From the NCBI RefSeq assembly GCF_001412535.1, contig NZ_CP011774.1:3260539-3292538 (forward strand): a stretch of DNA of 32,000 nucleotides, in the 5' to 3' direction. Under the pieces are notes generated by a model. That model worked only from the letters and a program-made list of their open reading frames with translations, had not been told where the DNA came from and ran no database searches. Position 1 is the first letter of the stretch; each line of letters opens with the position of its first letter. Position numbers and translations under genes: made by a program. The stretch comes from Limnohabitans sp. 63ED37-2 (lineage in GTDB: Bacteria; Pseudomonadota; Gammaproteobacteria; Burkholderiales; Burkholderiaceae_C). Below, piece after piece: positions 17,135 through 17,639 of this stretch.

Positions 17135-17542
17135 TCCGTTTTTATATAGGTCAATCTCAGGGCAGGCAATAAGCGGCTATCAACCAGCGAGCTTTGTTGA
17201 AATATACAAGGGCTTGGACGGGCTGACTAAAGGGCACATCTTCGTCTAAGCTGAAGGCCCGCTTCGACCCAACTCATTCTTCTGGCTTGGCAACGGTCCA
17301 GAGCATAGCCGTCACTCAGCCTCCACTAAGCGTCAATTTTCTTTACGCTTTTGCGCCCACCCCTACTTCTAGCAGACAACCCCGGTCAACCTCAAGCCGG
17401 TGGCGCATCCCCACTCCGCACGGTGCTCAAAAAGTGTGCAACGGCTGTGCTAAGACGCTGGCACAGCAAAACCGAAGCCCAAGTTAGGGTCTCCCGGTGA
17501 AGCACTTTTTTGGACACAGCAGGCATCCCCACGGAAAAGTCC

Positions 17543-17551
17543 TGCTACAAT
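17543..17551 (+). promoter_or_regulatory. Extended -10 element (TGcTACAAT) for the intact tRNA-Phe
   Basis: Lies 12 nt upstream of the tRNA 5' end. The surrounding 21 nt (17531-17551) match 4281-4301 at 17/21. A T-run plus TTGGAC (17510-17515) sits 30 nt upstream, with the same geometry as TTGAAG (4260-4265) at the chromosomal copy. Confidence 0.45.
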
Positions 17552-17563
17552 CTCTTGCTTACC

Positions 17564-17639
17564 GGCCCGGTAGCTCAGTTGGTAGAGCAGCGGATTGAAA
17601 ATCCGCGTGTCGGCAGTTCGATTCTGCCCCAGGCCACCA
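17564..17639 (+). tRNA. tRNA-Phe (anticodon GAA), intact, 76 nt with encoded CCA
   Basis: A cloverleaf can be drawn by hand. Acceptor GGCCCGG/CCAGGCC (one C5:A68 mismatch). D arm GCTC-AGTTGGTA-GAGC. Anticodon arm GCGGA-TTGAAAA-TCCGC. Variable loop GTGTC. T arm GGCAG-TTCGATT-CTGCC. Discriminator A, then CCA. Confidence 0.95.

Follow-up and report, generated by a model that had tools for sequence, protein, structure and literature searches.

Islands that integrate into tRNA genes are known to replace the 3′ end of the gene in the textbook case, and the host promoter stays in charge. Islands of the other polarity have been catalogued as well: in Islander, a 5′ tDNA fragment marks 159 of 3919 entries (Hudson, Lau and Williams 2015, PMC4383910), and Williams 2002 is cited in PMC8371274 as treating 5′-fragment islands as rare exceptions. 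According to that review, recombinant bacterial tRNA genes keep the original promoter 'with very few exceptions', and the target of classical anticodon-loop elements is likened to lambda attB, a 7-bp overlap flanked by a palindromic stem (PMC8371274). The 5′ half of a tRNA gene is used by archaeal pTN3-like integrases, where the tRNA is transcribed from the integrase promoter, an arrangement 'seldomly encountered in bacteria' (PMC8371274).

We analyzed a window of 32,000 nucleotides from Limnohabitans sp. 63ED37-2 (contig NZ_CP011774.1), in which an intact tRNA-Phe gene lies between two islands (Table 1). Across 4350-24419 the GC content averages about 48%, against about 61% in the rest of the window; it falls at 4350 and recovers past 24420. 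In a repeat search, the fragment 4312-4349 matched 17564-17601 of the intact gene at 38/38 positions, and 24420-24464 matched tRNA-Phe positions 32-76 at 45/45. The sole overlap of the two fragments is TTGAAAA, the 7-nt anticodon loop. The sequence-only reading had stated that the displaced 5′ fragment is still joined to the chromosomal promoter, and this was borne out by the 38/38 match together with an alignment of window positions 1276-4356 to the flank, promoter and tRNA-Phe start of Limnohabitans sp. 2KL-51 (locus L044), which at 85% identity places the 5′ fragment on chromosomal DNA. The chimeric working tRNA-Phe equals the native gene in sequence, and outside the 7-nt crossover loop no part of it is assignable to native DNA. 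All of it is mobile-element DNA because a related island occupies the usual downstream side.

Table 1. Features of the tRNA-Phe region in window coordinates
Feature	Position	Strand	Remarks
Predicted native tRNA-Phe promoter region	4255-4311	+	T-run; extended -10 TGCTAGAAT at 4293-4301; homologous to the L044 promoter
Displaced native 5′ fragment (attL of island 1)	4312-4349	+	tRNA positions 1-38; core TTGAAAA at 4343-4349
Island 1	4350-17563		13.2 kb; GC about 48%; upstream side of the intact tRNA-Phe
Distal att arm of island 1	4350-4459	-	Stem-like TCCGC shifted 2 nt (4352-4356); conserved block GCACAGAGTgtGCCGCACCGTTTTGCA (minus-strand reading)
MerR-like gene (island 1 cargo)	4799-5530		
Metallophosphoesterase (island 1 cargo)	5985-6866		
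DUF6876 (island 1 cargo)	7333-7689		
Two inverted IS30-family copies (island 1)	7848-8908 and 12789-13849		Repeat families D6/D7
DUF6641 (island 1 cargo)	9436-9948		
Macro domain protein (island 1 cargo)	10589-11089		
Small tyrosine recombinase (island 1)	12234-12854		Roughly 200 aa; catalytic domain only
int1, tyrosine integrase of island 1	14582-15898	-	Transcription away from tRNA; Pfam PF00589, PF14659
384-aa protein with C-terminal HicA-toxin domain	15980-17134	-	Between int1 and tRNA; Pfam PF07927
Predicted element-borne promoter region of intact tRNA-Phe	17500-17563	+	T-run 17505-17511; extended -10 TGCTACAAT at 17543-17551
Intact tRNA-Phe(GAA)	17564-17639	+	ARAGORN; sole intact copy within the window; repeat families D1, D2
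Intact tRNA-Phe by origin	17564-17594; 17595-17601; 17602-17639	+	Island 1 5′ half; core; island 2 3′ half
Island 2	17640-24419		6.8 kb; classical 3′-half-carrying type
Intrinsic terminator from island 2	17645-17684	+	Behind the intact tRNA-Phe
int2, tyrosine integrase of island 2	17751-19043	+	
Small tyrosine recombinase (island 2)	21330-21914	-	Roughly 200 aa; catalytic domain only
DUF6641 (island 2)	23236-23700	+	
Displaced native 3′ fragment (attR of island 2)	24420-24464	+	tRNA-Phe positions 32-76
Native tRNA-Phe terminator	24469-24502 plus T-run	+	Still behind the 3′ fragment
tRNA-Asn, tRNA-Asp, tRNA-Gly after the native terminator	24469-24789 (terminator and cluster)	+	

Based on this anatomy, we propose, with a probability of about 0.85 for the whole explanation, that two related but independent islands entered one tRNA-Phe gene at TTGAAAA from opposite sides. 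In its attP, island 2 would have carried, beside int2, the loop together with the tRNA's 3′ half and a terminator, and its insertion would have pushed the native 3′ half to 24420. Island 1 would be of the mirror type, bringing its own promoter and 5′ half and pushing the native promoter and 5′ half to 4312. Given entry from opposite sides, the working gene would thus be composed of the island-1 promoter and positions 1-31, followed by positions 39-76 and the terminator of island 2.

Both integrases matched PF00589 and PF14659 above the cut-off and PHROG 1 'integrase', and R278, R392 and Y424 were invariant in a 12-sequence integrase alignment. They belong to the tyrosine recombinase / phage integrase family and are predicted to be catalytic. 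The int1 gene is an intact 438-aa ORF with 3043 homologues at E<=1e-30; it lies 1.7 kb off the core, which in relatives is 250-300 nt away and likewise not within the ORF. In an exact-protein look-up, int1 gave no record, probably through a different start call, and the sole match of int2 was a 3-kb contig. The two proteins are 46% identical, and each gene adjoins the intact tRNA-Phe and points away from it. With island 1 turned round, int, small recombinase and DUF6641 follow one another in the same order and orientation in the two islands; they are related elements in mirror orientation. The small recombinases and DUF6641 are conserved accessory genes of the island family.

Read from the tRNA, island 1 carries the HicA-fusion gene, int1, a 266-aa protein, an IS30 copy, the small recombinase, the macro-domain protein and DUF6641, and beyond these the second inverted IS30, DUF6876, the metallophosphoesterase and the MerR-like protein. 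The slot between int1 and the tRNA is occupied by unrelated DNA in the closest relatives (L081 and L002), with zero DNA similarity across it. In this variable cargo slot of the window, the HicA-toxin domain is fused to a long uncharacterised N-terminal region and has no obvious HicB partner. The IS30 copies encode identical 335-aa transposases and lie inverted around a 3.9-kb segment with the macro-domain protein and DUF6641, and the copy next to the small tyrosine recombinase clips the 3′ end of that gene. L081, the integrase of which is 97% identical, departs from the window exactly at 13849, and the IS30 insertion is therefore recent. Bearing two IS30 copies, island 1 may no longer be mobile. 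We also considered whether the native tRNA promoter drives the island cargo. Taken alone, the window fits such an operon, with the genes of 4799-7689 all on the plus strand and no plus-strand terminator in 4350-4800, but as a general rule this was rejected, as gene orientation at the corresponding end is mixed in L083, L089, L090, L009, L120 and L098. At the right end of island 2, a promoter-like site (24367-24396; TTGCAA, 18 nt, TG-n-TACAAT) faces outward and aims at the displaced 3′ fragment and, beyond it, the tRNA-Asn/Asp/Gly cluster; L044 lacks this site in its homologous island.

The intact tRNA-Phe needs a local promoter, as the gene before it is divergent. In the element-borne region, TGCTACAAT ends 12 nt before the tRNA; a transcript from it would start near 17558, and the sequence running into the gene reads CTTGCTTACC and then GGCCCGG. 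The sequence-only reading held that this island DNA mimics the native upstream region, and its details were exact: the count of 17/21 matching bases around TGCTAGAAT and TGCTACAAT was reproduced, and the spacing to the -10 hexamer is exactly 30 nt for both TTGAAG (4260-4265) and TTGGAC (17510-17515), each of which comes after a T-run. The overall likeness is modest, however, since an alignment of the island-1 and native promoters anchored on the -10 gave 30/45 matches against a background of 19 ± 5.3 from 81 other tRNA-Phe upstream regions, about 2 sd. The TTGGAC hexamer is not conserved in the closest relatives of island 1 and, because of its 30-nt spacing, it is not a -35 box. A sigma-70 consensus scan called neither the native nor the island tRNA-Phe promoter because neither has a -35 box, so we based the promoter case on comparative conservation in place of that scan.

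In this comparison, a TAnAAT-like hexamer was found in 82/83 regions upstream of tRNA-Phe genes or 5′ fragments (TATAAT 41, TACAAT 24, TATACT 9, TAGAAT 4, TGTAAT 2 and TAAAAT 2). In these 82 regions, the end of the hexamer lies 8-16 nt, mostly 9-14 nt, from the tRNA, and a TG extension is present in 50. Every element-borne upstream region has a -10 box, often TG-extended and 9-14 nt from the tRNA, and the element copies are as good as the native ones. The conserved -10 box of the island is thus predicted to be the active promoter of the intact tRNA-Phe, and the native promoter appears now to serve the displaced 5′ fragment only. The GGAAAAGTCCTGCTAnAAT block and the T-run of island 1 recur in its nearest relatives (L081, L082, L089, L127 and L083), and they are a trait of the element lineage, not copied from this host. 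In the case of L098, the element shares TAGAATtCAAGGCTCA with the native promoter of the window; near-native sequence after the -10 in some elements, such as this one, is consistent with an old capture of a host tRNA-Phe upstream region. A deletion at L004 has removed the 5′ fragment along with the native promoter; the integrase there is truncated, and the intact tRNA-Phe stands behind an element-type TGCTACAAT. Positions 1-2000 of L004 are a decayed mirror-type remnant, with a tRNA-Phe identical to that of the window and an upstream region that is element-derived only.

To compare occupancy in relatives, an integrase alignment was searched against one genome per species (scan 1, 79 loci) and int1 against metagenomes (scan 2, 80 further loci). 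Freshwater Betaproteobacteria, including Limnohabitans, Polynucleobacter and Rhodoferax, account for nearly all integrase loci of the two scans. In L044, an intact tRNA-Phe stands behind the native promoter and is followed by island 2 at 89-91% identity, with no island 1; beyond island 2 follow a tandem classical island with a second integrase and 3′ fragment, and then the right flank of the window. L062-L064 and L067 show the native flank, tRNA-Phe and an int2-type integrase, that is, island 2 without island 1. The metagenome contig L112 has a right flank 94% identical to window 24403-31244 and an integrase 70% identical to int1, divergent and upstream of the tRNA-Phe, with an element-type -10 box and no island 2. 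Behind the intact tRNA-Phe of L112, the 90 nt compared are identical to the native terminator of the window and the first part of tRNA-Asn, and the tRNA-Asn/Asp/Gly cluster continues downstream. At L099 and L107, mirror pairs from other integrase variants lie on both sides of the tRNA. The occupancy comparison called for by the sequence-only reading therefore yielded island 2 alone (L044), the island-1 type alone (L112) and both (L099, L107), and its view of island 1 as a separate element was upheld by the single-island loci L044, L062-L064, L067 and L112. Read joints such as 4195 to 17557 were also considered as excision of island 1 and rejected; they come from relatives without island 1 and are not excision products of this strain. 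The public runs with the region are simulated metagenomes or assembled contigs, and among them neither an excised circle nor an empty site of this very island was seen for the strain.

The layout of island 1 was compared across the integrase family. In 36/36 informative loci (integrase at least 60% identical to int1, with readable upstream sequence), the layout is the mirror one: immediately upstream of int, the opposite strand carries either tRNA-Phe or a tandem 5′ fragment. A sister group at 54-59% identity shows the same layout at tRNA-Leu(CAA). The mirror layout is a property of the int1 clade. Both ends were mapped in six islands, and in each the anticodon loop is the exact end point of the distal 5′ fragment. 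Mirror-type islands seen whole, their 5′ fragment spanning positions 1-38 or 1-39, are L009 (10.7 kb), L083 (7.5 kb), L089 (9.7 kb), L090 (8.4 kb) and, at tRNA-Leu, L015 (3.3 kb). The tRNA-Leu 5′ fragment of L015 (12933-12970) differs from the element-borne 5′ half at three positions, which reflects either different origins of the two copies or decay of the fragment. The distal arm of island 1 aligned with the flank beside the 5′ fragment at 7 other loci, and a profile built from the eight arm copies found more copies beside 5′ fragments (L104, L127, L098 and L022) and revealed tandem arrays; the conserved arm adjoins a 5′ fragment in 11 loci. The single-occupancy loci, the 36/36 layout and the conserved -10 box all support the earlier claim that island 1 pushed the native 5′ half aside and furnishes one of its own, along with the upstream region.

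In a neighbour-joining tree of the integrases, layouts follow clades. Besides the mirror layout with int divergent from the tRNA (at tRNA-Phe and tRNA-Leu(CAA)), there are the classical layout of tRNA then int (at tRNA-Phe, Lys and Cys), a layout in which the 5′ fragment lies directly before int and the intact tRNA is distal (at tRNA-Phe and Met), and a few cases with int next to the 3′ fragment (at tRNA-Met). In the layout with the 5′ fragment before int, at L074 (9766-11221), L031, L032, L034 and L154-L160, a distance of 200-330 nt separates int from the native promoter and 5′ fragment upstream of it on the same strand, so that after integration the host tRNA promoter aims straight into int. 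The 5′ fragments all end at the last loop base and the loop-type 3′ fragments start at the first, which makes the loop the crossover in every type. In scan 1, 5′-carrying loci number about 27 of about 61 that were classified; in scan 2 this share is biased upward because int1 seeded it. In two Polynucleobacter loci (L023, 600-9700; L024, 2400-9700), six or seven short 3′ fragments are stacked 3′ of one tRNA-Phe. They comprise positions 51/55-76, the T-loop sublocation, with a mirror-type island on the 5′ side, and two integrase classes thus use two sublocations of one tRNA-Phe.

The occupancy states and layouts bear on two other accounts of the locus. One composite element of 20 kb (4350-24419), carrying a complete tRNA-Phe, might have cut the host gene at the loop without repairing it; the outermost fragments do share TTGAAAA alone, as a plain 7-bp core insertion leaves, and the tRNA inside is whole and equipped with a promoter and a terminator. 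Each half is found alone at the same site, however (island 2 in L044 and L062-L064, the island-1 type in L112), both integrases adjoin the tRNA and point away from it, and the integrase clades hold their own layouts over about 100 loci. Since three occupancy states exist, the composite element fails as an explanation, and we consider it very improbable. It could also be supposed that island 1 was once classical and that its 5′ fragment arose not from the integration of an attP with the 5′ half but by a secondary rearrangement, for instance an inversion or deletion through IS30 or recombination, considering the two identical inverted IS30 copies within island 1 and the proof of deletions at this locus in L004. 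The IS30 copies are internal and unable to shift the island ends, however, and the 5′ fragment stops exactly at the loop boundary. Dozens of loci that lack these IS copies, L081 among them, show the same layout and arm, and no close int1 relative among the 36 informative loci has a classical 3′-fragment layout. Such a rearrangement is accordingly just as hard to credit, and independent entry of the two islands from opposite sides is preferred.

How the mirror polarity arose is a separate question. The anticodon stem arms are symmetric, as had been pointed out from the sequence, and provide GCGGA / TCCGC core sites. We infer that int1 cuts on either side of the loop and that the loop, whose sequence runs backwards with respect to the arm sites of the integrase, determines in which orientation the island integrates. 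Along the direction of int, attP reads arm, TTGAAAA, TCCGC in the classical type and arm, TTTTCAA, TCCGC in the mirror type. A motif, CACC(N0-4)TTT[TG], occurs in both types 35-75 nt off the core and keeps one orientation with respect to int; chosen post hoc, it was found in 8/28 classical arms, 10/21 mirror arms, 0 in reverse orientation and 1.1% of random windows. Profile searches for homology between classical and mirror arms, in both directions, gave nothing significant. A flipped 7-bp overlap is a plausible, if tentative, origin of the mirror type, for which the mirrored gene order and the short arm motif speak indirectly. A flip of the overlap alone would destroy the tRNA, and an intermediate with a whole-tRNA attP or a spare host copy would be needed. 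We further observed that, on the element side, the sequence flanking the core retains a pentamer resembling the anticodon stem but shifted by 2-3 nt (TTGAAAA-AG-TCCGC, window 4350-4356; GAGGA-TAT-TTGAAAA), which is seen beside the 5′ fragments of L009, L089, L090 and L120 and in classical arms such as L041 and L053. Other classical arms resemble the stem minus its last two bases (CAGCG then TTGAAAA). The shifted pentamer may be a vestige of a whole-tRNA intermediate. With the layout as described, the mirror type could also have arisen not by a flip of the overlap but from an ancestral attP that held the whole tRNA, captured either way, and later lost one half. The four clade-tracking layouts within the family, element promoters that look like host tRNA-Phe promoters (as in L098, sharing TAGAATtCAAGGCTCA) and the vestige-like pentamer on the non-tRNA side of the core speak for this history, although none of the loci yielded an attP that contains the complete tRNA. 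We give it a somewhat lower than even chance, and it concerns the past of the elements without conflict with the present-day mechanism proposed above. It is possible, at close to even odds, that this freshwater betaproteobacterial integrase family repeatedly switched both the core polarity relative to int and the tRNA half carried, with four clade-stable layouts.

Compared with described systems, island 1 fits the known but rare 5′-fragment type. As in the Islander 5′-fragment islands, it is bounded on one side by a 5′ tRNA fragment and on the other by the regenerated tRNA, both in one orientation: a full tDNA has the 5′ fragment upstream of it, int1 is within the interval, the length of 13.2 kb falls inside the limits of 2-200 kb, and the island is a discrete unit, absent from L044 and L062-L064 and with its type alone in L112. 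In both, the gene has lost the use of its original promoter because the element restores the 5′ part (PMC4383910, PMC8371274). The novelty implied by the sequence-only reading was thus overstated, as 5′-fragment islands are already catalogued (PMC4383910); Islander only counts the type (PMC4383910), whereas here a whole clade has a fixed layout. Classical anticodon-loop elements carry the 3′ half, as island 2 does; their crossover within the 7-nt loop and an int adjoining the regenerated tRNA are common to island 1, which in contrast displaces positions 1-38 and the native promoter and brings the other tRNA half plus a promoter from upstream of the tRNA. Similar to the pTN3-like case (Cossu et al. 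2017, as summarized in PMC8371274), attB corresponds to the tRNA gene's 5′ half and the recombinant tRNA is transcribed from an element promoter, which is predicted here. In that summary, attP of pTN3 lies inside the integrase gene, the gene is split ('suicidal' integrase) and the tRNA is placed on the integrase promoter (PMC8371274). By contrast, int1 is intact and lies about 1.7 kb away on the opposite strand, while a separate -10 box precedes the tRNA; island 1 is not pTN3-like because its integrase gene is unsplit. The dusA-specific integrases, as outlined by Farrugia et al. 2015 (PMC4482086), likewise enter the 5′ end of the target gene, where the element must replace the start, but the target is protein-coding and the integrase family is different. 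In the literature searched, with Williams 2002 and the TIGER paper outside its scope, we found no description of a bacterial integrase clade with a fixed 5′-carrying layout or of a tRNA occupied from both sides.

The present case contributes strong comparative backing for the rare 5′-fragment type and an attractive arrangement on both sides of tRNA-Phe. Island finders that seek 3′ fragments only will overlook 5′-fragment islands, and in annotation the upstream side of a tRNA should be recognised as a place where an island can end. With their paired, mirror-image att sites, the two islands lend themselves to a clean test of what sets the direction in which tyrosine integrases integrate. The int1 clade does the reverse of the textbook case, so that the only visible tRNA-Phe of the region appears to run from element DNA. 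If the family did switch as considered above, it would be a natural test bed for the overlap sequence alone setting orientation at a palindromic core, and one essential tRNA gene could be colonised from both sides and become wholly element-encoded. Once the native promoter and 5′ fragment have decayed, as in L004, the host would need element DNA for its tRNA, which would amount to passive addiction.
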